From a virus (Duplodnaviria > Heunggongvirae > Uroviricota > Caudoviricetes), in the IMG/VR virus record IMGVR_UViG_3300042301_002383, positions 3,322 through 67,321 of that record: a stretch of 64,000 nucleotides of DNA. One strand, 5' to 3'. A model generated the notes under the pieces. The model was not told the DNA's origin. It saw nothing but the letters and a program-made list of their open reading frames with translations, and did no database searches. Numbering within the stretch: position 1 is the first letter of the stretch; the number at the start of each line of letters is the position of its first letter. Positions 13,584 to 30,977 of the stretch are shown here, piece by piece. Both the position numbers and the translations under genes were made by a program.

Positions 13584-13660
13584 TTTTATATTATTTATTT
13601 ATAAATATCTCTTAGTTGGGTAAATGTTATTTCTGTCCTCCGGAATCCCCGTTCGCAGAT

Positions 13661-15418
13661 TTATTGGGGTACGTAATCCCTGTCGATTGTATGGTCGGTT
13701 CTGTAATAAACGTATGTATTTTGACTTGTGAATCCAACCTCTTCGTGACTCCACTCTAATACTCTTGTTAAAAACTCCTCCTCACCCCCGTGTCTTTCAA
13801 CTATCTCATCCATTTCTATGTTCCCTGAGAACCATTGTTGTGCATTGACCTTATTCTTCTTTAGGATATCTTCCATATCATATACGGTATCAACACCATA
13901 TACCTCACTTAAGAAATCAGGAATATTGGATTCATCCTCCTCTTCGTGTTTTTTGTTAACATAATCATAGTACTCCTCCTCTATATCCAATACTTGAAGG
14001 AAATCCCACCCGTCAACAATACCACTTAATACTTCAATAACTTCGTGACCACCATAAATCTCAATAAAGTCATCTCTCATTATATCTGATGATCTTTCAA
14101 CCGCCTCGTCAAATGTTATAACCACATAGTCCTCCACAATATACCTTGAATTATCGAATCTTCTGTTCCTTACATTGATTCTTTCATCATCAATCACATC
14201 AATATTATTACGGTCAACATTTAATGCTGCCATTAATGCATTAATCTTACCCTCATTATTTATACCCGTACTCTTTAATTTATACTTATCCATGTAAGGT
14301 GTCGGTAATCCATCCACATTCTCATAATCATATGTGTCATCATCCTTACCCACGTTTTCTATTCCAGTACTCTCTGTAATAATATTATAAAATACGTTTT
14401 GTAGATTGGTTGGATATACCTTATCAAACATTACACCACCGTCTTTATTAACCCTTAATATACACCTCGCAATTGAAGTGTACGGATGTTCATTCCCCTT
14501 AGTGTCCTTATACGGTTTATTATATATAAGATAGGCAACCTTGGAGTTCTTATCAAATACATTCGATAACAACTTCTTATTCCATTGTGTACCCGGTTCA
14601 CCACCAGTGTATATGTTCTGACATGAATCGTAGAACTGAGATACCGACATCCTTAACTTATCGTCAGGTTTGTCCGTGATGTATAGATATAATGGGTACT
14701 GACCAATCTTATTAATGTTTTGTTGGTAATTTATAATCGGTTCCCTTAACCCAACGTAGTGTTTATCCCTGGTTATCTTATCCACATCCAAATAACCAAA
14801 TGTCTTTGGGAATACCTTTTTAATTGCAGCAATAAATCCCGGTAGACCCGTCGTGTTGTTTGACCATTTGATTTTATCCGCATTAATTGAATAATCCCAT
14901 CCTTTACCATCCTCAGGGTTACCCTGCAATGTGGAATCATTATTTAATCTGCTATCAGGTAATCTAAACGCCTTTGAATAAAACCAAGTATACTTTACCA
15001 ATGTACCAACACTTGAAGTATCTTCACTCATATACGGTAATCGTTTCTCCAAACTTGGAATCGATGCCCTCATAATAACTTTAAGAGGACCATCAACAAA
15101 TGAATAACCTGTCGGATTGTTATTATACTCCTTCCATATCTCGGACTTTCTTAGTTGTTCCACCAACTTATCGGTAACCGATCTAATCAATAGATTTGAA
15201 GCAAAGTCCACAACCTCATCATTCTTTATCTCCATATTCACATTTGGAATCTTGTCGGTGTGTTTTGGAACTTCCCTGTTTAAGTAATCACCTTTATATC
15301 TTTTCTGTATAATATCCTTCATGTAGTCAGGTATATCATCGGCAAGTACTTCCTGAAGATTTTTTGATTCATCAATTAATGACTTGTATTGATGTTCGGA
15401 TATTAATATTCTCATCAT
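13661..15418 (-). CDS. large hypothetical protein, member of N-terminal I-x-I-S-E-x-Q-Y motif group
   Basis: 585 aa; N-terminus MMRILISEHQYKSLIDES shares motif with 21674(+), 24848(-), 27280(-). Confidence 0.65.
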   Translation of the reverse strand: MMRILISEHQYKSLIDESKNLQEVLADDIPDYMKDIIQKRYKGDYLNREVPKHTDKIPNVNMEIKNDEVVDFASNLLIRSVTDKLVEQLRKSEIWKEYNNNPTGYSFVDGPLKVIMRASIPSLEKRLPYMSEDTSSVGTLVKYTWFYSKAFRLPDSRLNNDSTLQGNPEDGKGWDYSINADKIKWSNNTTGLPGFIAAIKKVFPKTFGYLDVDKITRDKHYVGLREPIINYQQNINKIGQYPLYLYITDKPDDKLRMSVSQFYDSCQNIYTGGEPGTQWNKKLLSNVFDKNSKVAYLIYNKPYKDTKGNEHPYTSIARCILRVNKDGGVMFDKVYPTNLQNVFYNIITESTGIENVGKDDDTYDYENVDGLPTPYMDKYKLKSTGINNEGKINALMAALNVDRNNIDVIDDERINVRNRRFDNSRYIVEDYVVITFDEAVERSSDIMRDDFIEIYGGHEVIEVLSGIVDGWDFLQVLDIEEEYYDYVNKKHEEEDESNIPDFLSEVYGVDTVYDMEDILKKNKVNAQQWFSGNIEMDEIVERHGGEEEFLTRVLEWSHEEVGFTSQNTYVYYRTDHTIDRDYVPQ

Positions 15419-15437
15419 AAATAAATATTAAACCATA

Positions 15438-15650
15438 TTAAATAATTTTACTATCAGGATATGCCAATAGTAGAAATCTTTTGTTGTATACACAATCCCA
15501 CGCTCTTCCATCCAAAGTGGATACCGCGGCGTAGTGTGCAGATTTAAGGGCTTCACTCGCGTGCATCTTGGCGAACTCAATCATCAACACTTCCGTTGTG
15601 ACACTTTCATTTTCAGATGTCATTTTTTCAATAAATTCTTTTGCCGTCAT
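15438..15650 (-). CDS. hypothetical protein
   Basis: internal ATG (MTAKEFIEK...) of track ORF 15438..15737, chosen to avoid 77-nt overlap with 15661..15969. Confidence 0.4.
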   Translation of the reverse strand: MTAKEFIEKMTSENESVTTEVLMIEFAKMHASEALKSAHYAAVSTLDGRAWDCVYNKRFLLLAYPDSKII

Positions 15651-15660
15651 GTTTTTGTGG

Positions 15661-15969
15661 TTAAAGGAAACTCTGTAGTATATAAGATAACTTGTACCCT
15701 GCGAAGGCACCAAGTGCCGATGGAATTGGGAATACAATAAGTTTACCCAAGTCAGTTACATATTTTGGTCGATTCACAATCCTTCCCATAAAGAAATAGT
15801 ATGTGAGGTAACCAAGAATGACCATTAAATCCGTTTTGGTACTAATGAATACCACAATGGTTGCACCAAGAAATCCAAAGATAAAGTTATCTCTTGTACC
15901 TTCCCACACCTCTTTGGGTGTTGCTTCATTCCATTCCTTAATTATTTTCTGAAATTGTCTCTTTGCCAT
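15661..15969 (-). CDS. small membrane protein
   Basis: 102 aa with two hydrophobic helices. Confidence 0.5.
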   Translation of the reverse strand: MAKRQFQKIIKEWNEATPKEVWEGTRDNFIFGFLGATIVVFISTKTDLMVILGYLTYYFFMGRIVNRPKYVTDLGKLIVFPIPSALGAFAGYKLSYILQSFL

Positions 15970-16003
15970 AATGAATATATTATATTAATAATAATTGACA
16001 AAG

Positions 16004-16723
16004 TCAATCCCAATATCCATGAGACTTCTTAAAAAATTCAGGATTGTTTCGGTTGAAGTAAGATTTCAACATTATACGGAACATCCATAACACACCCTTG
16101 TTCTTGAAGCGTCTGGATGATGTATATGCACCTTTAATCTTATGTACTTTAAATTCCTTTGGGTTAACCTTCTGAGATATAGAATAATCCTCGGCGAATA
16201 GTTCCTCAGGATTATATCCTCCCACTGACCAGTATGTGTCTGTATTCCATAGTTGAAATCCTCCTACTGCGAACGGAGTTCCAATCATTGTGGATAGGGT
16301 TTGGAATAGGTCGAACATTCTGAATACCCATCTGTATGGATAATCTGTATAGAATGGTACCGTGACCAAGTCCTTCTTATACCTTACACATTCAACTAAC
16401 GTATTCGGATTGGTTAGAAATACATCCGAGTCCAAGAATAACATATAAGGTGTTGTTACCAATTTGGATCCGTTTAATCTTCCGACACTTGGGTAACCAC
16501 CCTCAATTACATCAATCTTTAATGTATGTTTAAAATCTTTCTTTAACTTTATAATATACAATAACGATTTCATGTTATCCGAAACATCCGCAATAATAAC
16601 CCTTACCCCCCTTATATTATTTTGATTCGATAAATATTTTATGCAGGTGTATAGTGTTACCCCCTCGTTCTTGGATGGAATGACAATTGTAAGTTGATTA
16701 CTTAATGACCTTGTATTCTCCAT
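16004..16723 (-). CDS. family-2 glycosyltransferase-like protein
   Basis: track start 16765 is GTG; first ATG gives MENTRSLSNQLTIVIPSKNEG...; LFLDSDVF DxD-type motif. Confidence 0.6.
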   Translation of the reverse strand: MENTRSLSNQLTIVIPSKNEGVTLYTCIKYLSNQNNIRGVRVIIADVSDNMKSLLYIIKLKKDFKHTLKIDVIEGGYPSVGRLNGSKLVTTPYMLFLDSDVFLTNPNTLVECVRYKKDLVTVPFYTDYPYRWVFRMFDLFQTLSTMIGTPFAVGGFQLWNTDTYWSVGGYNPEELFAEDYSISQKVNPKEFKVHKIKGAYTSSRRFKNKGVLWMFRIMLKSYFNRNNPEFFKKSHGYWD

Positions 16724-17381
16724 CGTTGTATATGATATAACTATTATTCTCAATCCAATCCCCACAGTTTAGATATCTAACACCATTGATGCTCTTGTCA
16801 TCAGGATGATGAATATGACCACACATTACGGTGTTACAGTTATGTTTGATACCTTGTCTCACAATTTCCTCCTCGAAACTGGTCATGAACTTCACCGCCT
16901 CCTTTACCTTATCCTTTAGATACTTGGATAATGATCTCTTATAACCCCACGATTTAAGGGTTCTGTCGATGGATATGGCTATATCATAACCAATTGAACC
17001 AAGAACACCAAGCCATTTAAGTTTTACCACACCGTCATATAAATCACCATGGGTGATGTATGTGTTCTTGAAGATATATTCATTATGAATCTCTATGTTC
17101 CCGAAGTGAAGGTCAAGGTAGTCCCTCATGAACTCGTCATGATTACCCGGTATGTAGATAACCTTGGTCCCGTTCTTTGAATAGGACATTATCTTCCTTA
17201 TAACATTGGTGTGTGATTGTGGCCAACGGAACTTCCTCTTTAATAACCATCCGTCTATGATATCCCCCACAAGGAATAGATACTCGGGTTGGAATTGTTT
17301 AAGGACCTCTAAGACCTGTGTTGCATTTGAACCCTTGGAACCAAGGTGAACATCTGAAATGAATAATGCTTCTATCTTCAT
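16698..17381 (-). CDS. calcineurin-like metallophosphoesterase (LpxH-like)
   Basis: 227 aa; phosphoesterase motifs DVHLG, GDIIDGW, GNHDE, GHIHH. Confidence 0.75.
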   Translation of the reverse strand: MKIEALFISDVHLGSKGSNATQVLEVLKQFQPEYLFLVGDIIDGWLLKRKFRWPQSHTNVIRKIMSYSKNGTKVIYIPGNHDEFMRDYLDLHFGNIEIHNEYIFKNTYITHGDLYDGVVKLKWLGVLGSIGYDIAISIDRTLKSWGYKRSLSKYLKDKVKEAVKFMTSFEEEIVRQGIKHNCNTVMCGHIHHPDDKSINGVRYLNCGDWIENNSYIIYNDGEYKVIK

Positions 17382-17426
17382 TCACATAAATAGTACTCCG
17401 AAACTGGGACTGACATTATGGAATTA

Positions 17427-17915
17427 TTATTTAACAACACTTAAAAACACCGTATAAACTAACCTTCCATTGTTTATATTGTCCCCGAATGATTCCTTTA
17501 TTCTGTGCAACGTGGTTGATGGGTATATGGTTAATCTATTATATACATTCTCCACGTAGTCGATTTCCTCATTCTTATCATTATAGAAGATGGTCCCCGA
17601 GTTTGGTGGTGGGTTTGGTGTTAGGTATAGTACACCCGCGTAATCGAATATACCATCCGTATGTACAGTATTCGACATATCTTCATTCAAAGTATAATGA
17701 AAGAAACATCTTAAATTTGAACCAACGAACTTCGGGTCCAATTCATTAAGTTTGTTTTGTATCAATTCATTTAACTCTAAGTCAACCATATTGGTATATA
17801 AACATCTAAATCCTTTCCAACCAGGTGAGTTGGGTTGTGCTTTGGTGTAGTCCAATTCTAAACCTTCTTCCCTGATTCTATCAGGGTCTTCCAAAAAATT
17901 GTCAATTATTATCAT
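17427..17915 (-). CDS. hypothetical protein, possible small 2OG-Fe(II)/PhyH-like oxygenase
   Basis: 162 aa; N-terminus MIIIDNFLEDPDRIREEG and H-x-D (VHTDG) plus downstream His (TLHRIKE); fold assignment from memory, weak. Confidence 0.5.
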   Translation of the reverse strand: MIIIDNFLEDPDRIREEGLELDYTKAQPNSPGWKGFRCLYTNMVDLELNELIQNKLNELDPKFVGSNLRCFFHYTLNEDMSNTVHTDGIFDYAGVLYLTPNPPPNSGTIFYNDKNEEIDYVENVYNRLTIYPSTTLHRIKESFGDNINNGRLVYTVFLSVVK

Positions 17916-17928
17916 ATATTTTATTTAT

Positions 17929-17995
17929 AACTTCCGACTTTGTCACGTTTTTACTTCCGAGTTTGGACGTGTTTTACTTCCGACTTTGGCATTTA
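17929..17995. repeat. three tandem 23-bp direct repeats (ACTTCCGAsTTTGkmAyGT) in the 77-bp gap upstream of 17427..17915
   Basis: seen directly: ACTTCCGACTTTGTCACGTTTT / ACTTCCGAGTTTGGACGTGTTTT / ACTTCCGACTTTGGCATTT. Confidence 0.6.
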
Positions 17996-18214
17996 AATCC
18001 TTCTTCTTTCTATTTCGTTGTGGAATATATTAACCCATTCATCATGAGTTCTTCCCTCATATGGATTTGGAATCCTCATATTACCATCCCCATCCATACA
18101 CCTAATGATACTCACAATATGGTCGATGGATATGGTATGAATTGGATGTGTTAACCCATTGGCCGTTCTCCATCGAATTGTTTGTTCGGATTGAAAAAAT
18201 TTAAATGGTATCAT
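17993..18214 (-). CDS. FKFF-N-terminal family protein 1
   Basis: 73 aa, starts MIPFKFFQSEQ. Confidence 0.5.
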   Translation of the reverse strand: MIPFKFFQSEQTIRWRTANGLTHPIHTISIDHIVSIIRCMDGDGNMRIPNPYEGRTHDEWVNIFHNEIERRRI

Positions 18215-18650
18215 TTCTAAATGTTAAAGTTATGTCAGCGTTGGTGTGGAATAGTTCACCTACCATATCTTCTTCCCATTTACATTGTTCATAAATAATA
18301 TGATTAATTTCCGCTTCAACATCAATACTCATCCAAGCACCCGCTGCAAGTTCTTGTATATATCTTCTTATTGTTACACTATTTGTATGAACCGCGACCT
18401 CATCAATCTTCCTTCTAATATCATAATCACTATAAGAATTATATTTGTCCCTGTATAATTTGGTCATAACAATAATCAATATATTTTTAACCCTATCATT
18501 TTCCATTAGATTATTATCTACAATATATTTCCACGTGATGTCCAATACACCAATCAATAATGGAACATTTGTTGCATCATCTAATAAACCGGTTAGTTGC
18601 CAATTTATTCTTGTTTCGTTAGCTCTAAAAAATTTGAAATCTTTTATCAT
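18201..18650 (-). CDS. FKFF-N-terminal family protein 2
   Basis: 149 aa, starts MIKDFKFFRANE. Confidence 0.55.
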   Translation of the reverse strand: MIKDFKFFRANETRINWQLTGLLDDATNVPLLIGVLDITWKYIVDNNLMENDRVKNILIIVMTKLYRDKYNSYSDYDIRRKIDEVAVHTNSVTIRRYIQELAAGAWMSIDVEAEINHIIYEQCKWEEDMVGELFHTNADITLTFRNDTI

Positions 18651-18826
18651 ATTTTTATTTTAAAGAAATTAACTATTCTATCTGTGAAAGGTACTTTATT
18701 CTTCTTTAACATCTCTTGATATTCCACCACTTCAATCGCCTCACTCATTAAGATTGGGGTTCCTCTTCTTACCTTATCAGACAATTCTTCAAGACGTTTG
18801 TCTGTGAGTGTTTTTCTAAATTTCAT
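18647..18826 (-). CDS. possible 59-aa protein (MKFRKTLTDKRLEELSDK...NFFKIKI)
   Basis: hand-translated ORF filling the 186-bp gap; its stop overlaps the next start as ATGA; coordinates approximate. Confidence 0.35.
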   Translation of the reverse strand: MKFRKTLTDKRLEELSDKVRRGTPILMSEAIEVVEYQEMLKKNKVPFTDRIVNFFKIKI

Positions 18827-18836
18827 ATTATTTGTT

Positions 18837-19331
18837 TTATATTATATCAGGAAAATTATACATTGGATGTTCGGGATATATTGTATCTCCTTCTATTGTA
18901 TTTCCCTCTTCAATATGTCTGAACAACATAACTTTATATGGTTCACCGTCAAGCATACCTAATCTTTCTTCCGTTACATCAAAGAATATTAATTCATCTG
19001 TGTTATAGAACTCAGGATATGTTTCATCTATTGGTGGGTCGGGATTAACATTACCATAATTCATTTCTATTCTACCACGCCATCTTAAAAACCCTCTATT
19101 CCACAAACTACGTCTTATTCTATCGTGATATGGATTTGCTTCAACATTACTACGAGCATTTTCCCACCCTTGAATATAACATTCCATTTCTTGTAATGTT
19201 GAACCTCTTAAATCTTGTGGTAACAAATTCCAATGGCGATGTGATAAATTGAATGGTGGATTTTGTTGTGTTGGTAATGTATACTCATCACTATATGTGT
19301 ATCCGTTGAGTAGTTTAAATGGTTTTATCAT
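18837..19331 (-). CDS. FKFF-like (variant FKLL) family protein
   Basis: 164 aa, starts MIKPFKLLNGYTY. Confidence 0.5.
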   Translation of the reverse strand: MIKPFKLLNGYTYSDEYTLPTQQNPPFNLSHRHWNLLPQDLRGSTLQEMECYIQGWENARSNVEANPYHDRIRRSLWNRGFLRWRGRIEMNYGNVNPDPPIDETYPEFYNTDELIFFDVTEERLGMLDGEPYKVMLFRHIEEGNTIEGDTIYPEHPMYNFPDII

Positions 19332-19332
19332 A

Positions 19333-19596
19333 CTATTCTGGTTTACCGTCTTCTTCCCATTCTTTAATATCTTTCAAAATCTTATCTGTTAATTCCTTTG
19401 TTTTGTCATCAAGTATTCTCATTAATTCGATATCTCTAGGGTTTGATTCATTCCATGCCGACTCTTCTCTTGCACCTGAATCGTGAATCATATTATTTAA
19501 CACAAACCAACATGACATCTTAATTCTTGTTTCTAATGAAGTTTCTTTTAACAATTCATTTATTGTATTAGATAAAATCTTTCTTGCTTTTGTCAT
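19333..19596 (-). CDS. hypothetical protein
   Basis: 87-aa ORF. Confidence 0.5.
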   Translation of the reverse strand: MTKARKILSNTINELLKETSLETRIKMSCWFVLNNMIHDSGAREESAWNESNPRDIELMRILDDKTKELTDKILKDIKEWEEDGKPE

Positions 19597-19597
19597 A

Positions 19598-19822
19598 TTA
19601 TATTCGATTTAATTGTCTACCTGCGGCAGATGGTGTGTTTAAATAATCTTTATAACTCATTGCAATAGTGAATTCTGTTTCTTGCACCCAATATTCAAAA
19701 TGGTTTGGAAGCATTCTTGTTACACTACAATAGTATCCACGCAAAATAAACGAAGAACCTATTTGTAATCGACATCTATCTTTATATTTGTTCCGTTGAA
19801 AGAACTTGAACTTACTTACCAT
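19598..19822 (-). CDS. FKFF-N-terminal family protein 3
   Basis: 74 aa, starts MVSKFKFFQRNK; motif encoded TTC AAG TTC TTT, unlike TTT AAA TTT TTT in others, so conservation is at protein level. Confidence 0.5.
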   Translation of the reverse strand: MVSKFKFFQRNKYKDRCRLQIGSSFILRGYYCSVTRMLPNHFEYWVQETEFTIAMSYKDYLNTPSAAGRQLNRI

Positions 19823-20298
19823 ACATTTAATACTTTTGCAATCATTAAACCAAAAATAAATGTTACGGTGACAGCAATAAAAAATATACCTATCGCTTCG
19901 CTATGTGTTTCGATAACTGCATTAATCTTTATCTTTTGAAGGAACATCTTAATCTTCATCCACCACTTTGGATTAACGGTTGTTACTCTTGTTGCTTGAT
20001 ACAATTTAATTTGATTATCAGTTCCTCCACCGTTTATTCTTCTTGTAACTTCCTCTTGATTTAATGTTGGTCTAAATGTTTCAAAACGTCCTAACTGTCT
20101 ATCATAATAGTACCTTTCCATCTCATTATTATTAAATGGATTACGAAGTCTATTATATAATTCACTTTGTGCAGTGTGATATAAACGTCTTCTGGTATAA
20201 TAACCTTCAGGTGTGTCGGCATTGAATGAAGCAGTTGCTCGCACATCACCATCCATTATATCTAATGTCCCCTTTTGAAAAAATTTGAAGTCCTGCAT
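19816..20298 (-). CDS. FKFF-N-terminal family protein 4 (C-terminal TM helix)
   Basis: 160 aa, starts MQDFKFFQKG; EEVTRRINGGG matches EELTRRINGG in 59281(+); C-terminal hydrophobic helix. Confidence 0.55.
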   Translation of the reverse strand: MQDFKFFQKGTLDIMDGDVRATASFNADTPEGYYTRRRLYHTAQSELYNRLRNPFNNNEMERYYYDRQLGRFETFRPTLNQEEVTRRINGGGTDNQIKLYQATRVTTVNPKWWMKIKMFLQKIKINAVIETHSEAIGIFFIAVTVTFIFGLMIAKVLNVW

Positions 20299-20690
20299 TA
20301 CTTAATATTTGAAGTATAGAATGTATTTGTAGATATTGTTCCTGTTGTTGTAAACGCTCCACCAATACCTCCCGTAGTTGTTACCGTTCCGGTTGTATTT
20401 GATGTTGTTAAACTAAACCCTGTTGTTGCGGTATTGATTGTTCCACTAAATGGAATTGTGTAAGTACCAGTACCCGGTGTTGTTGTTATAGTATAATCAG
20501 GTATAGTATAGGTGGATGTTGCGTATTGAACTAACCCTGGATTAACTATCCAAGCTGGGTTGGTGGTTGTTGTGCCCCAATTTATTATTCCAGTTCCTGG
20601 CGTTGGTGGATAAGTTCTAAAAATATCCTCCCATTGTTCTGTTAATGTATTTTGTTTATACCCTCTGAAAAATTTGAATTCGCGTACCAT
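20298..20690 (-). CDS. FKFF-N-terminal family protein 5 (Thr/Gly-rich, fibre-like)
   Basis: 130 aa, starts MVREFKFFRGYK; C-terminal two-thirds low-complexity T/G/P-rich. Confidence 0.55.
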   Translation of the reverse strand: MVREFKFFRGYKQNTLTEQWEDIFRTYPPTPGTGIINWGTTTTNPAWIVNPGLVQYATSTYTIPDYTITTTPGTGTYTIPFSGTINTATTGFSLTTSNTTGTVTTTGGIGGAFTTTGTISTNTFYTSNIK

Positions 20691-20712
20691 AATTTCTTTT
20701 ACTATATATATT

Positions 20713-21159
20713 TTACATTTGGAATACTTCGTATTCTTTCATTCCATTTTCTTTTCTTTTATCTTCAATAACATCTTGGAAGTCTTCTAAGAATTCTTCA
20801 ACGTCATCAATACCATAGATTACAAAGTAACTAGTAAATTGGTCTGAACTTCTAACCATAATACTACCTACACCAAGAATTCTCATCCAAAACGGTCTTT
20901 CCATCATTACGGATTTAATTCTATGGAAATATATTTCTCTTGTTGTTACGGAAAACACACCACGACTTTCTACAATACGGTCGTCATAGATATCGTAGGT
21001 CCAACATGCATAATCTAAAATCTTATAGATTGGTATTAAAACTACAAGTGCAATCCAGTAAAATTCTGTTGACATTGCTGCGGATAGTGCAAATCCACCA
21101 ATGAATACCCAAAGAATGTTTATTAGTTGGGATGGTTTAACTGTGAAATCGGGAGTCAT
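20713..21159 (-). CDS. membrane-anchored bacterial PH-domain (bPH_2/DUF304-like) protein
   Basis: 148 aa; two N-terminal TM helices followed by a YdbT-like PH-domain pattern. Confidence 0.55.
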   Translation of the reverse strand: MTPDFTVKPSQLINILWVFIGGFALSAAMSTEFYWIALVVLIPIYKILDYACWTYDIYDDRIVESRGVFSVTTREIYFHRIKSVMMERPFWMRILGVGSIMVRSSDQFTSYFVIYGIDDVEEFLEDFQDVIEDKRKENGMKEYEVFQM

Positions 21160-21160
21160 G

Positions 21161-21601
21161 TTATTTAATTTTAGTGATTTTTACGTTTTTTATGGTGGTT
21201 TGTTTATCATCCTCACCAATTAAGATATCGATTCTATTTTTATATCTTTTGTTCATTACATCTTTAACGGTATAAACTCCGTTATATTTTCCAGCCATTT
21301 TAATTCTAACCTTGGTACCAAATGGCCACTTTTTCTTTAAATCTCTCGAAACGGCAATGATTCTGTGTCTTTCGGGGTTGTCCTTATCTATTTTGAACCC
21401 TGAGGCTGTCAAATGTGGGGTTGAATCTGTTTCCCCTTCCGTTGGTGAGTAGGTTGTAAGGGTAACTGTCTCATAACTAATTGGTTTTCTTACTTCTATG
21501 TATGAATTCGGTACATTCCCGATGTTGATTGACAGTGGGAATAATGACAATAAAATGGTTATTAGTAATGACAATAATATGGTTAATATTGATGTATTCA
21601 T
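21161..21601 (-). CDS. 3D-domain (MltA-like) cell-wall protein with N-terminal anchor
   Basis: 146 aa; hydrophobic N-terminus, then TTYSPTEGETDSTPHLTASG...RIIAVSRD...NRIDILIG typical of 3D domains. Confidence 0.65.
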   Translation of the reverse strand: MNTSILTILLSLLITILLSLFPLSINIGNVPNSYIEVRKPISYETVTLTTYSPTEGETDSTPHLTASGFKIDKDNPERHRIIAVSRDLKKKWPFGTKVRIKMAGKYNGVYTVKDVMNKRYKNRIDILIGEDDKQTTIKNVKITKIK

Positions 21602-21603
21602 AT

Positions 21604-21640
21604 CACAAATATACGAATAGTATTTTGAATATCCAAAAAT
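21604..21640 (-). promoter_or_regulatory. minus-strand promoter (TTTTTGGATATTC ... cgTATATTTG)
   Basis: minus reads TTTTTGGATATTCAAAATACTATTCGTATATTTGTGATATG (ATG = 21601). Confidence 0.55.
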
Positions 21641-21673
21641 ATTATTATTATTTTTAGAAAGTATTTATATACT

Positions 21674-22819
21674 ATGAGGATATCGATTACGGAAGCACAA
21701 TATGAGAAACTAATCCAAGCAAATGAGGTTGTTGGGGTTCCAGAAGGAATTTACGATACTGCAAAATCCATATACAGAAAGTATATTGATAGTTTAGTTG
21801 AAGAAGTGGGTCTACAATTCGGTAATATGAAATTGGGTGGATCTACCGATGTTGGTTTTTCAATTATGGGTGATTATCATGTTGGTGATTTATCTTTTAA
21901 TAGTGTTGATTTTATGGTTACATTTGATTTTGACAAATATAGAAATGTTGAAATTGAACAAATGAGTATTGGTGTTGGTGATAAATTAACAAACGATTAC
22001 AAACTAACATACAAAAAAACTGGTGGTCGTCTTGCTATGGGTGCAACATATCAAGTACCTGAAGATACATCTGAAGAAGATTTAATTAATAGTATTTTAA
22101 AATTTCAAACTAAAACAATATCGGCCATTGCTCACGAGTTGAAACATGCATATGATTTTGATAAGAAACCAACAAGGAATGCGGGTGAAAAAGTTAAGTA
22201 TCATTCTATCGAGAGTCTTATGGTTAGTGTTCGTCCGTTGATGAAATTTAAAAGTATGTTATATTATTCACACGTTGTTGAGGAGAGTGTTAGAAACAGT
22301 GAAATATATACACTAATGAGACTAAAAGGAATCACTAAAAAACAATTTAAAAGTTTCTTAACTAAAACAACTACATACGATTTCTTAAAATATATGATGG
22401 ATTATGATTATGAAAAATTCATTAAGGAGATGTACAATAGTATTCAGGGTATCGAATCTTTTTTAAGTTATGTTAAAATTGATTATGATAATATGACTGA
22501 TGAAGAAAAAGTAAACGCCGCACTGAAAAAGTTTTATGAAATAGTTTCAAGAAGACGTAAAGATTTTCTTAACGATGTGATGATGGATTCACAATCAGAT
22601 TTAATGTTGTTGTTAGCATCTGCACTTGGTATTGCTGATAATATTGTCAAGATGGGTGACAATGAGGCGAAAATTAAAGCAATGAAAAAAATCAACAAAC
22701 ACATTAATAGTTATAATGATTATATTGATTTTTATCAAAAAGAATTATCAGATATTAAAATTTCAACAACAAACACACTTAAAAAACTAGGTAAGTTATA
22801 TAGTTTAGCAGAAGACTAA
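21674..22819 (+). CDS. putative HExxH zinc metallopeptidase with I-x-I-T-E-x-Q-Y N-terminus
   Basis: 381 aa on the opposite strand inside the minus block; AHELKHAYD (HExxH); N-terminus MRISITEAQYEKLI. Confidence 0.6.
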   Translation: MRISITEAQYEKLIQANEVVGVPEGIYDTAKSIYRKYIDSLVEEVGLQFGNMKLGGSTDVGFSIMGDYHVGDLSFNSVDFMVTFDFDKYRNVEIEQMSIGVGDKLTNDYKLTYKKTGGRLAMGATYQVPEDTSEEDLINSILKFQTKTISAIAHELKHAYDFDKKPTRNAGEKVKYHSIESLMVSVRPLMKFKSMLYYSHVVEESVRNSEIYTLMRLKGITKKQFKSFLTKTTTYDFLKYMMDYDYEKFIKEMYNSIQGIESFLSYVKIDYDNMTDEEKVNAALKKFYEIVSRRRKDFLNDVMMDSQSDLMLLLASALGIADNIVKMGDNEAKIKAMKKINKHINSYNDYIDFYQKELSDIKISTTNTLKKLGKLYSLAED

Positions 22820-23145
22820 GGCTCAAATCTCAAAAACCTTATTGTTAGTAAATCGGATGTAATGTCGAATCCCCAACCATCTTCATATTGTGTATTGGCA
22901 TCATGAAATCTTCCGTTTGGTCCTGTTATTGATAATACGGGAACAATAAATCTATTGGGGAATCTATATAAGAATTCGTGTATACCGTCACTTTGAGTTT
23001 CAACAATATCGTATGTGTAATTAGTTAATGGTAATAGACTTGTCCATGACCAAGAAGCACTATCATCGTCCAACGCTTCGATTAAATGTTCTTCAACCTC
23101 ATCTTCATCTTCGTTACCAGAAAAAAATTTAAATGATTTTACCAT
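22816..23145 (-). CDS. FKFF-N-terminal family protein 6 (acidic)
   Basis: 109 aa, starts MVKSFKFFSGNEDEDE. Confidence 0.5.
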   Translation of the reverse strand: MVKSFKFFSGNEDEDEVEEHLIEALDDDSASWSWTSLLPLTNYTYDIVETQSDGIHEFLYRFPNRFIVPVLSITGPNGRFHDANTQYEDGWGFDITSDLLTIRFLRFEP

Positions 23146-23151
23146 ATTATT

Positions 23152-23829
23152 TTATAATCTATAAACAATAGTATCTGAAAAATCTTTTTCGTTTTTTGTT
23201 TCAACTTCTTTTTCAAATCTATGTATGTGTTCTTTCATATCGTCATCGATATCAATATCAATAACCTCACCTCCATTATTAACAAACTTATCAATTTCTT
23301 TTACAATAATATTAATTAAGTCTTCGTTATAATCACTGTACCATTCACCCTCAACCCATCTTTCTTCTAATAAACTATGCATGTATCTTTCAAATCTAAA
23401 GCAATCCGATTGTGATATTTTCCAACATCTTTGTGCTACGATTCTGATTGGTGTGTGAGTCTTGGTTCCTTTTCTTCCTGAACTAATTTCTCTTTGTAGT
23501 TGCTTCATTCTATCCTCAACATCAAATGCAATTCCTATTTTTTTATCAGGAAAAACCCATTTAAAATTTTCAGGTCTTTTGTTATCATGTTTATCAACAT
23601 ACGTTGCAACATATAGAAATGTTAGAATATCATTTCTAAAAAATTCACTGTCTCTTGGTGTTGGGATGCATCCCTTTTCAAAATCTCTTTTTTCTGATAC
23701 TCCACTATAGTGGTCTTTTTTGTGTCTGTAAAATTTTTTATTTATTTCTTTTTCTAACTCTTCTAAGTTTTCTTCTTTGATGATAAATTGTTTAGTTAAA
23801 TCTAATTCATTAGTTTCATTTTGATTCAT
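23152..23829 (-). CDS. hypothetical protein
   Basis: 225-aa ORF. Confidence 0.55.
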   Translation of the reverse strand: MNQNETNELDLTKQFIIKEENLEELEKEINKKFYRHKKDHYSGVSEKRDFEKGCIPTPRDSEFFRNDILTFLYVATYVDKHDNKRPENFKWVFPDKKIGIAFDVEDRMKQLQREISSGRKGTKTHTPIRIVAQRCWKISQSDCFRFERYMHSLLEERWVEGEWYSDYNEDLINIIVKEIDKFVNNGGEVIDIDIDDDMKEHIHRFEKEVETKNEKDFSDTIVYRL

Positions 23830-23888
23830 AAAAATATATAATGTTTAATTGTTAAAATATAAACAATAATTTTTAATTATCAAATAGA

Positions 23889-24071
23889 TTAACTACCAAT
23901 TAAATAAATTTCTTTTATAGATTTACCTTTTAACTCTGTACGGTAAAGATAACATTCGGATTCAGATGATCTTAAATTTTTCATCTTTTTCTCCGCTTGT
24001 TCCAAAGTTTCACACTCAATAATTTCTTCACCAACTTCGATGTGGTACTTTATTTTAATTTTGATTTCCAT
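23889..24071 (-). CDS. hypothetical small protein
   Basis: 60-aa ORF. Confidence 0.4.
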   Translation of the reverse strand: MEIKIKIKYHIEVGEEIIECETLEQAEKKMKNLRSSESECYLYRTELKGKSIKEIYLIGS

Positions 24072-24074
24072 TTT

Positions 24075-24299
24075 TTATAATGTTTGTTTTATTAATTTCT
24101 CCCATTTAGAATAGTCTATTTGGATGTCAATTGGTTCCTCATCGTAATTGTCCCAAGATGTTAAATGCCAATGGTTACAATCTGAACAATGGTAGTAGCG
24201 CACCTCTTTTCTCCATCGTTTACTTTGTTTAAAACGAATGTAGTTTAAGACAGTCTTTACTTCCTTTTTTCCAAATTTTACTTTTTGACACTGTTCCAT
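24075..24299 (-). CDS. small Cys/His-containing protein (possible zinc ribbon)
   Basis: 74 aa; YYHCSDCNHWHL. Confidence 0.45.
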   Translation of the reverse strand: MEQCQKVKFGKKEVKTVLNYIRFKQSKRWRKEVRYYHCSDCNHWHLTSWDNYDEEPIDIQIDYSKWEKLIKQTL

Positions 24300-24304
24300 T
24301 TAAA

Positions 24305-24778
24305 TTACTTTGAGATATGCTCTTCGTATTGTTCCCTCAACCATTGGAGGTAAATACATTTTTCATATTGTTCATCCTCAACATAATACTCAAGAAGATA
24401 ATTAACGTTATTGATAAATGTTTCATCAAATTCCAATTGTTCAACATTAACATAGTGTTCGTAGACCTCGTCAATATTCTCATGATAAGTTTTACCTGGT
24501 CTTCTAGGAATTGAAAAGAAACTTTGGATTCCATTTTTTATCATGAATTCAGTAATGTTCATTACCTCCTCAAATAAACCAAACGTTCTTGTTCCACGAG
24601 TACTGTTAATTTCAAACATCTCAGTTTTAAATTTACTTTTCCTCATAAAATTATCTAAATCTTTTTTTCTATCGTCACTCAACCCTTCTTTCATATCTTT
24701 TAACATAGCCCTAAACTTCTTCATGAACTTTTTAGGGTCGTTAAAATCCTCATCACTAAATTCGAAATTTTTGTTCAT
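24305..24778 (-). CDS. hypothetical protein
   Basis: 157-aa ORF; promoter-like TATATTTG about 27 nt upstream on minus strand. Confidence 0.55.
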   Translation of the reverse strand: MNKNFEFSDEDFNDPKKFMKKFRAMLKDMKEGLSDDRKKDLDNFMRKSKFKTEMFEINSTRGTRTFGLFEEVMNITEFMIKNGIQSFFSIPRRPGKTYHENIDEVYEHYVNVEQLEFDETFINNVNYLLEYYVEDEQYEKCIYLQWLREQYEEHISK

Positions 24779-24828
24779 CTTTTATTATTTGTTTACATGC
24801 AAATATACAATTATATTTTGTATATACC

Positions 24829-24859
24829 AAAAAAAAAACCCTGAAATTTATTCAGGGTT
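24829..24859 (-). terminator. rho-independent terminator (palindromic, could act in both directions)
   Basis: AACCCTGAA-ttta-TTCAGGGTT perfect 9-bp stem; minus strand then reads TTTTTTTTTT. Confidence 0.7.
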
Positions 24860-25372
24860 GTTGTCTATTGGTGTGATGTTAATTGTTTCTGGCGGATATT
24901 CTTTTTCAAAATATGACATTCTTTCGGACACTTTCCCATATTCAACAAATGGTTCAATAATGTCATTATACATGTCATGTAGGTTATCTAAATCTGTTTG
25001 TAAATTATCCATATCACTTACTAAGTGGTCAAACTTGTTAAATTCATCACTATAACGTCCATCATTGTTATATTCTTGTTGTTCATATGAATCTCTAATA
25101 TCATAATATTTGTTAAATTTAGTTCTATAAACTTCATGTAGTTTGGAACAATCTTGAACAATTTTAGAGTACTTAACAGGTTCTTCAAGAACATTACCAA
25201 TATTAATTGATTTTAAATAGGTAAGTAATTTACCCATTGCTTTTTTGCCCTCAATAACATCTTTCGTTATAGACTCAAGATGAGATGGTAGTTCACTCAA
25301 AGCGTAAAATACGGTTTGTTCAACCAATTTATTGAACTGTACTTCTGTTAAAATAACCTTTTTCATATCCAT
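24848..25372 (-). CDS. hypothetical protein with V-I-L-T-E-V-Q-F N-terminus
   Basis: 174 aa; MDMKKVILTEVQFNKLVEQ. Confidence 0.55.
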   Translation of the reverse strand: MDMKKVILTEVQFNKLVEQTVFYALSELPSHLESITKDVIEGKKAMGKLLTYLKSINIGNVLEEPVKYSKIVQDCSKLHEVYRTKFNKYYDIRDSYEQQEYNNDGRYSDEFNKFDHLVSDMDNLQTDLDNLHDMYNDIIEPFVEYGKVSERMSYFEKEYPPETINITPIDNNPE

Positions 25373-25377
25373 AAATA

Positions 25378-25599
25378 TTACTCATTAGGTAAATCTTCAA
25401 TAGATTCAATAACCAATCTGTCCGATGGGTATTGTGCAGTCAATTCAAAATGGGTTTCATATGAACCATACTCACCGATTACCTTAACTTTCTTATGAAA
25501 TCTAGTTGCACATACTGAGTCGGGATGTACGGTGTCAGCATCGATTGTTACTTCCCTTAGTTCACTACCAACAATTAAAAAACAATTATATCTTTTCAT
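25378..25599 (-). CDS. hypothetical protein
   Basis: internal ATG (MKRYNCFLIVG...) of track ORF 25378..25707, which otherwise overlaps the next gene. Confidence 0.4.
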   Translation of the reverse strand: MKRYNCFLIVGSELREVTIDADTVHPDSVCATRFHKKVKVIGEYGSYETHFELTAQYPSDRLVIESIEDLPNE

Positions 25600-25600
25600 A

Positions 25601-25774
25601 TTAATCTTTTGAATTTCCGTGAATATAAAACATAGCACCGAACAAAAACGTTGAACAATATCGATAAAAATCAACTGGTTGGTCGAATTTATATTCTTGG
25701 GTAACATATGCCCCTAAAATAAACGCTGATAATATCGAAAGTAACCTTGATAAACCTTTTGGGAAATTTTTCAT
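25601..25774 (-). CDS. small membrane protein
   Basis: internal ATG (MKNFPKGLSRLLSILSAFILGAY...) of track ORF 25601..25804. Confidence 0.35.
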   Translation of the reverse strand: MKNFPKGLSRLLSILSAFILGAYVTQEYKFDQPVDFYRYCSTFLFGAMFYIHGNSKD

Positions 25775-25778
25775 AAGA

Positions 25779-26291
25779 TTAGATTTTAATATAACTAATC
25801 CCACCTTGGGTCCCCTTCAAAGAGTTACTATATCTTTGTTCTGCGTTTTCTCTTTTAACTAACTTACCATTCTTATGATAGATAGCCCACTTCCATTCTT
25901 TGGTTGGTTTATATCCAGGTCCTTTCCAATGTGGATGTGCACCTTTTTCGTACTTCTCTAACTTATCGATTACCGCTTCTAACACATAATCATCCGACAC
26001 CTCCAAGTATCTCATACCAGGATATATCTTATCTCTTTTTGGACAATTATACATTACAGCATAACTACAATCTAAAGATATATCTAAGTCTTCATTACTT
26101 CTTGCACTAATCAATATTGCAAGTTGATCACCGGTTGTGTCGATTACCTTTTTAGTTTCCCTTGGGAGGTACTCAATTAATTTACTAATGTTTCCACGGT
26201 ATTCTCTAACCGCCTCTTGTCTTGTTTCGAATATCTTATCAGGTATTCTACCATCTAAGAGTTCTACTTTGTATTGTTTGTTTACTATCAT
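25779..26291 (-). CDS. hypothetical protein
   Basis: 170-aa ORF. Confidence 0.55.
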   Translation of the reverse strand: MIVNKQYKVELLDGRIPDKIFETRQEAVREYRGNISKLIEYLPRETKKVIDTTGDQLAILISARSNEDLDISLDCSYAVMYNCPKRDKIYPGMRYLEVSDDYVLEAVIDKLEKYEKGAHPHWKGPGYKPTKEWKWAIYHKNGKLVKRENAEQRYSNSLKGTQGGISYIKI

Positions 26292-26845
26292 GATTTATAA
26301 AGTCTATTGTGATTGTACAATGCGACAGGATTTTCCTCCGCAATAATTCCGTATTCTTTCATCACATTTTCATATATGACGTTTTTATCTTCATTAATGT
26401 ACTTACCAATAATGTTAACAAACCCATAGTTTGACTCATCAACTTCACCTTGTTGAGTTCCTGGTAATCCACAGTACAATGCCTCCCCAACCTCGCTGAT
26501 GAACATCCCAGAATAGAACCCAAGTAGTCCAAAGACATCAACAAACTTATCAGCATTACACCAAATAAAGACACTGTTGTCCTTTTCTTTTAAAAGTGGT
26601 ACCATTGATTGGTCGATGATATAACCTCCGTATTTTGCACCACAATTATCAAATTGACCTATTGAGAATAGACCACCTGGACTGCCATGACCCATCATCA
26701 TTACACGGTCGTGTTCTTTAATTAAGTTCATAACATCCATCTTACTACAACCACCTTTGACAACGGTTTTATTTGGAATGTTTTTATAAACTATATCAAG
26801 AAACGTAGTCGACTCATCCGCCGGATGTATTATTAAAGTTTTCAT
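26288..26845 (-). CDS. hypothetical protein
   Basis: 185-aa ORF. Confidence 0.55.
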   Translation of the reverse strand: MKTLIIHPADESTTFLDIVYKNIPNKTVVKGGCSKMDVMNLIKEHDRVMMMGHGSPGGLFSIGQFDNCGAKYGGYIIDQSMVPLLKEKDNSVFIWCNADKFVDVFGLLGFYSGMFISEVGEALYCGLPGTQQGEVDESNYGFVNIIGKYINEDKNVIYENVMKEYGIIAEENPVALYNHNRLYKS

Positions 26846-27222
26846 TATTCTATTTTTGATTTGATTTCTTGGAATACTCCATCAGCCACCTCTCTATATT
26901 CATCATACTGTTGGTACCTATCTTGAAATGTTTCCAATGAGTGGATAATAGTTGTATGGTCTCTATTTAAAATTTTACCGATGTGTTTTAAAGTGTGACC
27001 AAACTCTCTTTTCATAACCGCAACGAAAATAAATCTAGCATCGATTACTTCTCTATCTCTAACTCTTGATAATATTTGGGAAGCGGTGACACAGCAGTTC
27101 TTAGCAACTATATCGAGTATTTCGTCTTTTGTTATTCTATCTCTTTTAAACCTTTTTAATTTTTTATATTCATCGGTATTTTTCATACCGGGGTAAACAT
27201 AGGGACTGATGTTCTCTATCAT
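26845..27222 (-). CDS. DnaA domain IV-like (DnaA C-terminal HTH) protein
   Basis: 125 aa; VIDARFIFVAVMKREFGHTLKHIGKILNRDHTTIIHSLETFQDR matches the DnaA C-terminal DNA-binding signature (...IAMYL.REL...SL..IG..FG.RDHTTV.HA); no AAA+ domain. Confidence 0.7.
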   Translation of the reverse strand: MIENISPYVYPGMKNTDEYKKLKRFKRDRITKDEILDIVAKNCCVTASQILSRVRDREVIDARFIFVAVMKREFGHTLKHIGKILNRDHTTIIHSLETFQDRYQQYDEYREVADGVFQEIKSKIE

Positions 27223-27239
27223 GTTTTATTGTTTTAGAG

Positions 27240-27276
27240 TACAAATATATATGGTTTTTTAGAATATTCCAAAAAT
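27240..27276 (-). promoter_or_regulatory. minus-strand promoter (TTTTGGAATATTC ... TATATTTG)
   Basis: minus reads TTTTTGGAATATTCTAAAAAACCATATATATTTGTACTCTAAAACAATAAAACATG (ATG = 27222). Confidence 0.6.
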
Positions 27277-27279
27277 ATT

Positions 27280-27516
27280 TTAGAAATTCCCAAATAAAAA
27301 TTGGTAAACCACCTCGGGTATTTGGGTACAGATTGATTGTGCACCCTGATTGTCAGTACATTCAATATGTGGTAAATTCTTAATATAACCCCTCATATAT
27401 TTTGGAGCTCTGTTTAATCTACCAACAATATAGTCTCTTGGGTATAGTTTATCAGCTTCATAAAATCCTTCTGATATAACTCTTTGGTACTGAGACTCAC
27501 TTACAATTACTTTCAT
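27280..27516 (-). CDS. hypothetical protein with V-I-V-S-E-S-Q-Y N-terminus
   Basis: 78 aa; MKVIVSESQYQRVISEG. Confidence 0.5.
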   Translation of the reverse strand: MKVIVSESQYQRVISEGFYEADKLYPRDYIVGRLNRAPKYMRGYIKNLPHIECTDNQGAQSICTQIPEVVYQFLFGNF

Positions 27517-27527
27517 ACCTATAAATA

Positions 27528-28655
27528 TTACCCTCTTGGCGTTTCTGCACTTGGACCTCCGTTTCTAATATAATAACTTTCTCTATTATGTTCGATAGTT
27601 TCTGGAATTGAGTTGATTTCACCTGAATTCCACATCATTCTATCTATTATTGTATCTGATTGAGGGTCCGCAGCATTTTCGCTGTCTTCGTATTCCCTTT
27701 CTTCGGATCTTTCCTCTAACATCTCTTCCGTAGGGTCATTTTCTCTTCTAATGGCTGCACCGATTCTATTACTTAATCGTCTTTCAACTGGTTGCTCAAC
27801 TGGTGTTGGTTCGTATAGTCCACCACTCTTAAATAACCCACTATGTTTTAAAAGAATATCCTCTTTAGTTCTTTGGTCATCGTCTAACAGATATCTATTT
27901 GTTTTGGCATTTTTAGCCATCGATGTTTCACCAATTACTTTTCTTAACTCATCGTTTAATTCAGTTTGTAATGAATCAACACGAGTATCTTTTTGATTCC
28001 AAAATGAAAACTCTTGGTCGTTTTTATCTAATGAATAAAAACTTGCAACTTTATAACCTGTCTTTTTATTAATACAATAAATTAAAACACCTTTAGAACT
28101 ATACTTAATAAAGTATTCAGGATTGTTTGATTGAGTTGTACACCATTTAGTGTTAGAACCATATTTTTTAGATGCCAAATATGTTAATGGTCTAACTAAT
28201 AACCATTCATCATCTTCATAAACTTTAATGATTTGGTTCTCCATGTCCTTAGTTTCTACCTTCATGTCGGCAACACTAACGGAATTAACAACATCTTCAA
28301 AATTCTTATATCTACTTAAATCATTTTGTTCAATAAGATTTCTCTCATTGTAATCGCAAAATTTCTTAAAGTTTATTAAATCTTGAACATTAAAAAAACC
28401 ATCAACAAATTTATACAACAACATTAATTGGATTTCACTAAATTGATTTAGTTTTTCCACGCTAATGAATGTAAATTCAGTAGTTAATGTATCCTTAATT
28501 TCTTTAATATGTTCTTTTATATTTGGTGTACCTTTCATTAGTTTAAGTAACAAATCGGTATACTTAGATTTTCCTTCTGGACTAAACAATTCAAGTACAG
28601 TAACCAAATTTAAACTGTTGTCAGGATTGGTTTTTAATTCCTTAATTTTCGACAT
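27528..28655 (-). CDS. hypothetical protein
   Basis: 375 aa; acidic C-terminal third. Confidence 0.55.
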   Translation of the reverse strand: MSKIKELKTNPDNSLNLVTVLELFSPEGKSKYTDLLLKLMKGTPNIKEHIKEIKDTLTTEFTFISVEKLNQFSEIQLMLLYKFVDGFFNVQDLINFKKFCDYNERNLIEQNDLSRYKNFEDVVNSVSVADMKVETKDMENQIIKVYEDDEWLLVRPLTYLASKKYGSNTKWCTTQSNNPEYFIKYSSKGVLIYCINKKTGYKVASFYSLDKNDQEFSFWNQKDTRVDSLQTELNDELRKVIGETSMAKNAKTNRYLLDDDQRTKEDILLKHSGLFKSGGLYEPTPVEQPVERRLSNRIGAAIRRENDPTEEMLEERSEEREYEDSENAADPQSDTIIDRMMWNSGEINSIPETIEHNRESYYIRNGGPSAETPRG

Positions 28656-30924: not shown

Positions 30925-30977
30925 AATTCTATTTTATATATAAATACTCGTTATTAGGTTTTCTTTTTATAAATACA

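Follow-up and report, generated by a model that had tools for sequence, protein, structure and literature searches.

What is the use of a short peptide with which proteins of otherwise unrelated sequence all begin? The question is posed by a 64,000-nucleotide (nt) stretch of DNA, here called the window, from a virus of the Caudoviricetes (IMG/VR record IMGVR_UViG_3300042301_002383, positions 3,322 to 67,321), which has a G+C content of about 33% and is part of a 131,212-bp contig. A preliminary description had pointed to four open reading frames (ORFs) with a common 12-residue N-terminal pattern, and had proposed that such a tag, together with a cleavage-like (L/I)-x-E site of phage T4 type, marks cargo of the phage head. 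We confirmed that the shared peptide is real and that it reaches well beyond the window. As to its role, the reading that we favour, and consider rather probable, is that of a propeptide resembling the capsid targeting sequence (CTS) of T4, which would target proteins to the prohead and be processed by a T4-type protease. The four ORFs lie where they had been placed, with N-termini as quoted (aa, amino acids):

13661..15418, minus strand: 585-aa protein of unknown function, N-terminus MMRILISEHQYKSLI, tag MMRILISEHQYKSLIDESKNLQE followed by VLADDIP; leader residues 1-23, nt 15350-15418
21674..22819, plus strand: 381-aa protein with an invariant HELKH, N-terminus MRISITEAQYEKLI, tag MRISITEAQYEKLIQANE followed by VVGVPEG; leader residues 1-18, nt 21674-21727
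24848..25372, minus strand: 174-aa protein of unknown function, N-terminus MDMKKVILTEVQFNKLV, tag MDMKKVILTEVQFNKLVE followed by QTV; leader nt 25319-25372
27280..27516, minus strand: 78-aa protein, N-terminus MKVIVSESQYQRVI, tag MKVIVSESQYQRVISE followed by GFYE; tag nt 27469-27516

The full form of the shared start is M-[KR]-[IV]-x-[IVL]-[ST]-E-x-Q-[YF]-x-x-[LV]-[IV]. The pattern as first worded fits three of the four ORFs literally; the fourth, 24848-25372, has a leucine at the fourth motif position (KVILTE). When relaxed to [RK][IV]x[IVL][ST]ExQ[YF]xx[LV][IV] and compared with every ORF of 30 aa or more in the six frames, it gave four matches, all within the first 8 residues, and none elsewhere in the window. 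From the amino-acid composition of the window proteome (118 genes, 19,231 aa), 3.6e-5 matches would be expected anywhere and 1.3e-6 at N-termini, and the comparison with shuffled proteomes that the preliminary description had proposed gave no match in 2000 shuffles. Because the pattern was drawn from these four sequences after they had been seen, an independent test in IMG/VR weighs more than these window statistics. Two further statements held: the proteins are otherwise dissimilar (past residue 22, best BLASTP E-values of 0.9-4 in a 7-sequence database), and the HExxH of the 381-aa protein is present as HELKH at residues 154-158, invariant in its family.

For the independent test, we scanned IMG/VR with the back-translated pattern ATGAARATHNNNYTNACNGARWSNCAR (M-K-I-x-L-T-E-[S/T/R]-Q). 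It matched at least 119 loci, as against 5 for a control whose codons were the same but scrambled in order. Almost all matches are true ORF starts: no ATG lies further upstream, and a stop is met within a few codons. Positions that the search had left free proved to be constrained as well: among 103 matched proteins, position 10 is Y, L, F, I or V in 90, position 13 is L, I or V in 95, and position 14 is I, L, V, F or M in 79. Positions 15-16 are mainly E or N and then E, and conservation declines past residue 16 or so. The consensus thus spans about 16 residues, M-K-[IV]-x-[ILV]-[ST]-E-x-Q-[YFL]-x-x-[LIV]-[IVL]-x-E, and will be called the LTESQ tag. The 103 distinct tagged proteins fall into about 41 families that are unrelated beyond residue 20, and in 1612 ORFs of related loci the tag was N-terminal 135 times and internal 10 times. 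Tagged genes may also follow one another in tandem, as do five in locus L008.

Selection acts on the tag at the level of the peptide. Synonymous codons at its conserved positions are used in the background proportions of the same ORFs, with the Leu, Ser and Thr codon families all represented, and the S/T position of the four window genes is encoded by TCC, ACG, ACA and AGT; such codon use argues for selection on the peptide, not on RNA or DNA. A DNA repeat or common 5' cassette was considered as a source of the likeness and rejected, since the genes have only a 7-8-nt upstream element in common and their codons differ. Moreover, homologues in three families retain the tag even where identity has fallen to 25-40%, which argues for purifying selection. 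In each of three window families it is a separable module, present in some homologues and missing from distant ones. It is found in 99 of 120 homologues of the 585-aa protein, the most distant of which carry other short leaders, and in 16 of 36 representative homologues of the 174-aa protein, where distant others begin at the conserved core. In the HELKH family, homologues of 25-30% identity start with MKKEIKE-VVGVPEG or, in P0185, with MKIIITEKQYEKL. A homologue of the 78-aa protein in locus L111, which is syntenic with window positions 26288-28655, has 55-60% identity and keeps the tag as MKIKLTESQYNKVLLE.

Some related observations concern the same families. The 375-aa window protein at 27528-28655 (PHROG 17056) is untagged and its conserved domain occurs with a tag in a 169-aa protein of another phage (L066:4791-5297), a further case of tag gain or loss. 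The 636-kb uncultured megaphage L136 (LR756504.1 319945-334132) has three tandem paralogues of the 585-aa protein, among five matching places in its genome; these have no LTESQ tag, and short leaders ending in [IV]-K-E precede ALKD[EQ]IP. A related-locus search of IMG/VR with the 585-aa protein gave none.

The tag contains two [LIV]-x-E motifs, ending at about residues 7 and 15/16. The second ends at position 15/16 in 63 of 83 tagged IMG/VR proteins, with 1-4 proteins at each neighbouring position. At the leader ends in the window, we find IDE-17 and LQE-23 in the 585-aa protein, LVE-18 in the 174-aa protein and ISE-16 in the 78-aa protein. In the 585-aa family, each of the 110 members with a complete N-terminus reads [L/I/V/F]-x-E-[AV]-L-x-D-[DE]-[IL]-P at the boundary; E23 does not vary among them, and the third residue before the putative cut (P3) is L, I or V in 108 of the 110. 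A near-invariant E18 precedes x-[VLI]-G-V-P in the HELKH family, where P3 is A in 19 cases, L and I in 4 each and M in one. As for the I/L-x-E element that had been likened to a cleavage site, the motif is present, yet its glutamate at residue 7 is not strictly kept, being N in 39 of 99 members of the 585-aa family and K in 3 of 16 of the 174-aa family. Q9, on the other hand, is nearly invariant (98/99 in the 585-aa family, 20/20, and 16/16 in the 174-aa family), and the terminal [LIVMF]-x-E likewise persists in 96/99 (585-aa family) and 15/16 (174-aa family, positions 13-17). Since Q9 and the terminal motif are better kept than E7, a release site, if there is one, is more likely at the leader end (residue ~15-23) than after E7.

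Structure prediction agrees with a detachable leader. In AlphaFold2 models of the 585-aa and 381-aa proteins, residues 1-20 have a predicted local distance difference test score (pLDDT) of 36-49 and form a low-confidence helix from residue 7/8 to 17/19, and the confident fold starts in both at about residue 21-24, just past an invariant Glu. The models thus place the tag outside the protein fold. Charged and polar residues (K, E, S/T, Q, K/R, E) run through the whole tag, and the hydrophobic h-region of Sec, Tat and lipoprotein signals, which spans some 10 residues or more behind a basic n-region, was not found in it.

The tagged genes of the window also share what lies in front of them. A TATTTAT(A/T/G) element stands 11-12 nt before the likely start in all four, this start being the second ATG for 13661-15418 and 24848-25372; for the latter the second ATG is likely the true start. 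The same element precedes 8 of 114 other window genes (hypergeometric p ~6e-5), four of which have variant N-terminal motifs. The late-promoter-like elements of the four tagged genes are:

15421..15427, minus strand: TATTTAT, 585-aa gene, at -12 relative to its second ATG
21661..21669, plus strand: GTATTTATA, 381-aa gene, at -12 relative to its start
25371..25377, minus strand: TATTTAT, 174-aa gene, at -11 relative to its second ATG
27520..27528, minus strand: ATATTTATA, 78-aa gene, at -11 relative to its start

In the longer form (R)TATTTATA, eight of nine exact window copies are in sense orientation just 5' of gene starts (13600-13608, 21661-21669, 27520-27528, 30939-30947, 30968-30976, 36998-37006, 39259-39267 and 55685-55693; also L127-L129), with two preferred spacings to the ATG, -11/-12 and about -20 to -24. 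The element precedes the large terminase gene TerL (18 loci), the portal gene and the S77 protease gene in IMG/VR loci, and in Flavobacterium phage vB_FspM_immuto (hereafter immuto) it stands before TerL, portal, tail sheath, tail tube, tail spike and other virion genes. Since it precedes structural genes of relatives, we read TATTTAT(A) as probably the late promoter of this lineage. The late-promoter consensus of T4 is TATAAATA, which is the reverse complement of the element; with respect to the genes, the element here consistently reads TATTTATA. A spacing of -12 leaves no room for a leader, and those mRNAs may be leaderless. Some tagged genes lie inside operons and have no element of their own; in tandem arrays, the promoter would be needed by the first gene only. 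When elements 9-26 nt upstream of the ORF were counted in related loci, the tag class described so far and the classes taken up below differed as follows:

LTESQ-class ORFs, related loci: element in 43%
IITE(S/E)E(K/R)-class ORFs, related loci: element in 79% (11/14)
EE(L/I)NRIK-class ORFs: element in 4/4
FKFF ORFs: element in 0/8
All other ORFs, related loci: element in 15%

Which kind of phage uses the tag? The closest cultured relative is immuto: its ThyA is 60% identical to that of the window over 434 aa, and a glycosyltransferase/epimerase cluster (42-64%) is collinear in the two; no close relative of the window was found among GenBank phages. Immuto (160 kb) encodes a T4-type portal protein gp20, an S77 prohead core protease and a gp23-type capsid protein, as well as GroEL/GroES. 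Its protease reads GLLTE/SK near its own N-terminus (the slash follows the Glu), its capsid protein reads KQIVSE/ANVTG at about residue 59, and the 360-aa protein encoded just 5' of the protease starts with MRTLQEKYNAIQEGKFSKEHFIAE/A. T4-type head genes also occur on the tag-bearing loci themselves: Portal_T4 on L118 (E 3e-80) and L120 (E 1e-75), Peptidase_S77 on L023 (E 6e-23) and on L089 (E 4e-15, with a Hint intein inside), and a T4-type TerL in 23 loci. Wherever the tag was genuine, no non-T4 head gene was met on the locus. Of the tagged families, the most frequent (283-285 aa, about 19 loci) is encoded directly 5' of TerL where the neighbourhood was read (L006), and in L118 a tagged 128-aa ORF lies directly 5' of the protease gene and three genes past the portal gene, a position that in T4 belongs to the core proteins gp67/gp68.

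Some head genes of relatives contain inteins, namely the Hint intein in the S77 protease (L089:1834-3045) and a LAGLIDADG-containing one in TerL (L006:10215-13385). In Microcystis phage Mel-JY01, the closest portal match, no tags were found in the 50 kb read, and the ribosome sites are of the GGAG type. The host of these phages may be a member of the Bacteroidota: the signal peptides of two secreted window proteins (34875-35507 and 50556-51095) end in SYAQ and CLAQ, and a Gln at +1 of signal cleavage (the Q-rule), typical of Bacteroidota, is a clue that suggests such a host.

What the tagged proteins are also bears on their destination. Pfam domains above cut-off on tagged IMG/VR proteins comprise Phage_lysozyme with LysM, Peptidase_M23, PG_binding_1, an ECF-type (extracytoplasmic function) sigma factor (Sigma70_r2, r4) and Phage_L5_gp82 behind a Zn-ribbon, and inspection of the sequences added a 442-aa protein that is very basic, has long runs of K/R and matches no Pfam family, proteins containing transmembrane segments, and a nuclease-like protein. 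Among the classic head or ejection proteins are wall-degrading, basic and membrane-active ones; a sigma factor does not belong to them. The tagged lysozyme, M23 peptidase and very basic proteins are plausible candidates for ejected cargo, and no replication or nucleotide-metabolism enzyme was found among genuinely tagged proteins. The tagged ECF-type sigma factor (186 aa, L117:294-851) occurs in six loci, with TATTTAT at -12.

The tag can be compared with known systems. The internal proteins of T4 carry an N-terminal CTS of 10-19 residues that binds the scaffolding core and is removed by gp21 (PMC9026906, PMC8442874, PMC3012670). This CTS, MKTYQEFIAE (PMC8442874), uses residues 4 and 7 for targeting and 8 and 10 for processing (PMC9026906), and it is held to be the route by which T4-like phages load diverse proteins into heads (PMC9026906, PMC8442874, PMC3012670). 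Like the CTS of IPI, IPII and IPIII, the LTESQ tag is a short (10-19 aa), strictly N-terminal leader on unrelated, fast-evolving proteins, whose genes are scattered among non-structural genes behind late-type promoters, in a lineage with a T4-type portal, S77 protease and gp23-type capsid protein (on the side of the tag, the late promoters are putative and the head genes are those of relatives). Its Q-Y-x-x-L-I-x-E can be laid on T-Y-Q-E-F-I-A-E, so that Y10, L13, I14 and E16 fall on Y4, F7, I8 and E10. Unlike the CTS, the tag has a longer and different consensus, to which M-K-I-x-L-T-E-S-Q adds a further half and in which one Gln is nearly invariant; its carriers belong to dozens of families, enzymes and a sigma factor among them, where T4 has a handful of small basic proteins; and its phages have a probable Bacteroidota host.

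The extra half has a counterpart of its own. The protease gp21 cleaves after Glu, and T4 Alt is trimmed at both ends, by six N-terminal residues at ITE-6 and at the C-terminus at LTE-619 (PMC5694885). In position and chemistry, M-[KR]-[IV]-x-[ILV]-[ST]-E, the first half of the tag, closely resembles the Alt propeptide (M-E-L-I-T-E), and the gp21 motif (L/I)-x-E is also seen in the immuto protease (LLTE/S) and capsid protein (IVSE/A). The tag differs from Alt in that E7 is not universal, so the cleavage site after residue 7 is probably optional. Giant phages of the phiKZ/SPN3US type likewise have N-terminal propeptides on head-internal proteins with several cuts after Glu, and paralogues there may share an N-terminal 15-mer (PMC5694885). 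Their protease, however, is S80, with S/A/G-x-E sites and a small P3, as against S77 and a hydrophobic P3 for the tag, and no consensus tag common to unrelated families has been described for them. The proteases found here are S77, and A-x-E occurs in the 381-aa family only.

We infer docking, cleavage, packaging and ejection as follows. Tagged genes would be transcribed late, each from its own TATTTAT(A) promoter. The short helix Q-Phi-x-x-Phi-Phi would dock the protein on the scaffolding core of the forming prohead; after closure of the shell, the T4-type S77 prohead protease would cut behind the Glu of [LIV]-x-E, mainly at the leader end (residue ~15-23) and optionally past residue 7, and the mature protein would be freed in the head. 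It would then enter the next host cell along with the DNA.

Several observations weigh against this reading. The window itself has no S77 protease, portal or capsid gene, and the link to T4-type heads rests on relatives; genes 5-8 kb beyond its ends include tail-fibre-like ones to the right, and an exact-match walk in IMG/VR for head genes of its contig found nothing. A search of IMG/VR for the protease gave 7985 matches; among the matches listed (120), identity to the immuto protease was 92-100% and none was tied to the contig of the window. No strict tags were found in the 150-kb stretch of immuto that was scanned, despite its protease and promoter element. More generally, megablast and tblastn searches of cultured phages (with the consensus peptide and the 585-aa, 381-aa and 284-aa families) recovered none with a tag, giving either no match or only megaphage paralogues that lack it. 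The likeness to the T4 CTS spans only 4-5 positions, too few for statistics. The 381-aa protein has ANE-18 at its boundary instead of [LI]-x-E, many homologues have N or K in place of E7, and a cleavage motif gives no explanation for Q9, which is conserved best of all residues. Finally, the ECF sigma factor and Zn-ribbon proteins are tagged and are not obvious head cargo. The idea that an N-terminal tag with a T4-type (L/I)-x-E site marks head cargo is partly supported; every indirect test made on the sequences agrees with it.

The main rival is a generic N-terminal interaction helix, with a phage or host partner such as a chaperonin, RNA polymerase or the membrane, or else a regulatory or degradation tag, in either case unrelated to packaging; the [LIV]-x-E pattern would then merely follow from the make-up of an amphipathic helix with much E, K, L and I. 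We regard this as possible though unlikely. A short helix predicted with low confidence is typical of folding upon binding, the near-invariant Q9 would find a role that cleavage does not give it, tagged sigma factors and Zn-ribbon proteins could work in the cytoplasm, and immuto encodes a chaperonin in its GroEL/GroES. Such a helix does not account, however, for conservation that ends at a Glu with a hydrophobic P3, for an invariant boundary Glu in two unrelated families, or for placement in a T4-type head module behind an element common to structural genes, and no candidate partner was identified.

The remaining rivals, at the level of RNA, recombination or export, are disfavoured. If late mRNAs are leaderless or have short leaders, translation initiation could constrain the first codons irrespective of the peptide, and TATTTAT does lie 11-12 nt before the ATG of many tagged genes, with no room for a Shine-Dalgarno sequence and the ATG at the expected transcript start. 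We rejected this constraint on synonymous codon usage, which is at background for both Ser and both Leu families and offers four different codons at one position of the four window genes; many untagged genes have the same element spacing, besides, and there are tagged genes within operons without the element. It is therefore given very little weight here. Equally improbable is that the tag is a functionless relic of promoter-plus-leader cassettes spread by recombination. The stem-loops of T4 early promoters, which shuffle genes, could serve as a model, and the promoter-like element and the tag do occur together, also in tandem arrays such as the five genes of L008; but the window copies are alike at the nucleotide level only in the 7-8-nt element, and the peptide has been maintained in three families to low identity, as described above. 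An export or lysis-related signal is highly unlikely too, for although several tagged proteins are peptidoglycan hydrolases or have transmembrane segments, the tag is hydrophilic and charged, has no hydrophobic core and is not Sec-, Tat-, lipoprotein- or SAR-like (signal-arrest-release), the true signal peptides of the window look different (MKKLLVLLMILLSLVSYAQ), and the sigma factor and Zn-ribbon proteins carry it as well.

Next to the LTESQ tag, the window holds other N-terminal motifs behind the same element. A second class, [LIVF]x[ILV][ST]E[SE][ED][KR]xx[IL], is represented in related loci by 14 ORFs, and TATTTAT stands before 11 of these. Its fuller form, on unrelated proteins, is x-[KR]-x-[LIF]-[IV]-I-[ST]-E-[SE]-[ED]-[KR]-x-x-I-[LRK]-x-x-[HY], and it occurs in the window at 13209-13583 and in L011, L013, L021, L039, L052, L076 and L100. 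A third class, L-x-E-[ED]-[LI]-[NK]-R-[IL]-[KRH]-x-L-[MT] in its last part, lies behind TATTTAT in four of four examples (window 37787-39253; L029:9041-9808; L045:3464-4270; L071:5518-7014). The window genes concerned are:

13209..13583, minus strand: 124-aa protein, second tag class MRQKFTITESDRKHIKKLYEQE, with TATTTATA at -24
30700..30924, minus strand: 74-aa protein, degenerate tag MSKVIKLKQSDIERIVSNIVNE, with two TATTTATA elements upstream
37787..39253, minus strand: 488-aa putative peptidoglycan hydrolase, third class MKKSLQEDLKRIHTL, with TATTTATA at -13

The 488-aa protein has a weak endolysin PHROG match and two Pfam matches, both under their curated cut-offs: PG_binding_1 (19.9 bits versus 23) and Glucosaminidase (17.1 versus 30.2).

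The preliminary description had counted a further set, the FKFF group, among the cargo marks. This did not hold up, as its members have neither the late-promoter element (0/8) nor an L-x-E site; the group differs from the LTESQ tag and is to be judged separately. It comprises seven or eight small ORFs that start M-x(1-4)-F-K-F-F, mostly in one overlapping operon (window 17993-20690 and 22816-23145, and 59236-59523 internally), and one similar ORF only was seen in about 1 Mb of related loci.

The auxiliary genes of the window encode a thymidylate synthase, DNA methyltransferases, glycosyltransferases, a NifU/IscU-like Fe-S cluster protein, and DUF932 and T5orf172 proteins. The ThyA homologue (51332-52495) has 387 aa against a Pfam profile of 266 positions, and so carries an insertion of about 120 aa. 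IscA-like and NifU/IscU-like Fe-S assembly proteins are encoded at 43659-44392; the IscU-like gene, which has TATTTAT at -23, is 85% identical to a copy in L102.

Full-text literature searches with exact peptide strings, and with capsid targeting sequence combined with T4-like or metagenom*, retrieved no description of the motif. The principle is known from T4; the consensus, its breadth, the companion classes and the link to TATTTATA were not met in this search. We would go further only tentatively, to the unlikely but attractive reading that a large uncultured T4-like clade infecting Bacteroidota uses portable address peptides, of the LTESQ, IITE(S/E)E(K/R) and EE(L/I)NRIK classes, for loading dozens of unrelated effectors for co-injection. 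These effectors would include peptidoglycan hydrolases, the ECF sigma factor, Zn-ribbon and very basic proteins, and the classes might specify different core positions or copy numbers. If so, the injected proteome of such phages would be legible directly from metagenomic sequence, and the tagged ECF sigma factor, if packaged, would be an injected sigma factor and a new way to take over host transcription.

If the tag is a CTS-like propeptide, as we think rather probable, the CTS principle of T4 would extend from a few internal proteins of coliphages to a broad lineage of Bacteroidota phages that is abundant in the environment, with a longer and different consensus and a cargo repertoire much larger than that of T4. 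Candidate injected proteins, be they anti-defence, wall-degrading or possibly a sigma factor, could then be listed from sequence alone in metagenomes for which there is neither host nor virion, and a packaging tag would be ready for the engineering of such phages.

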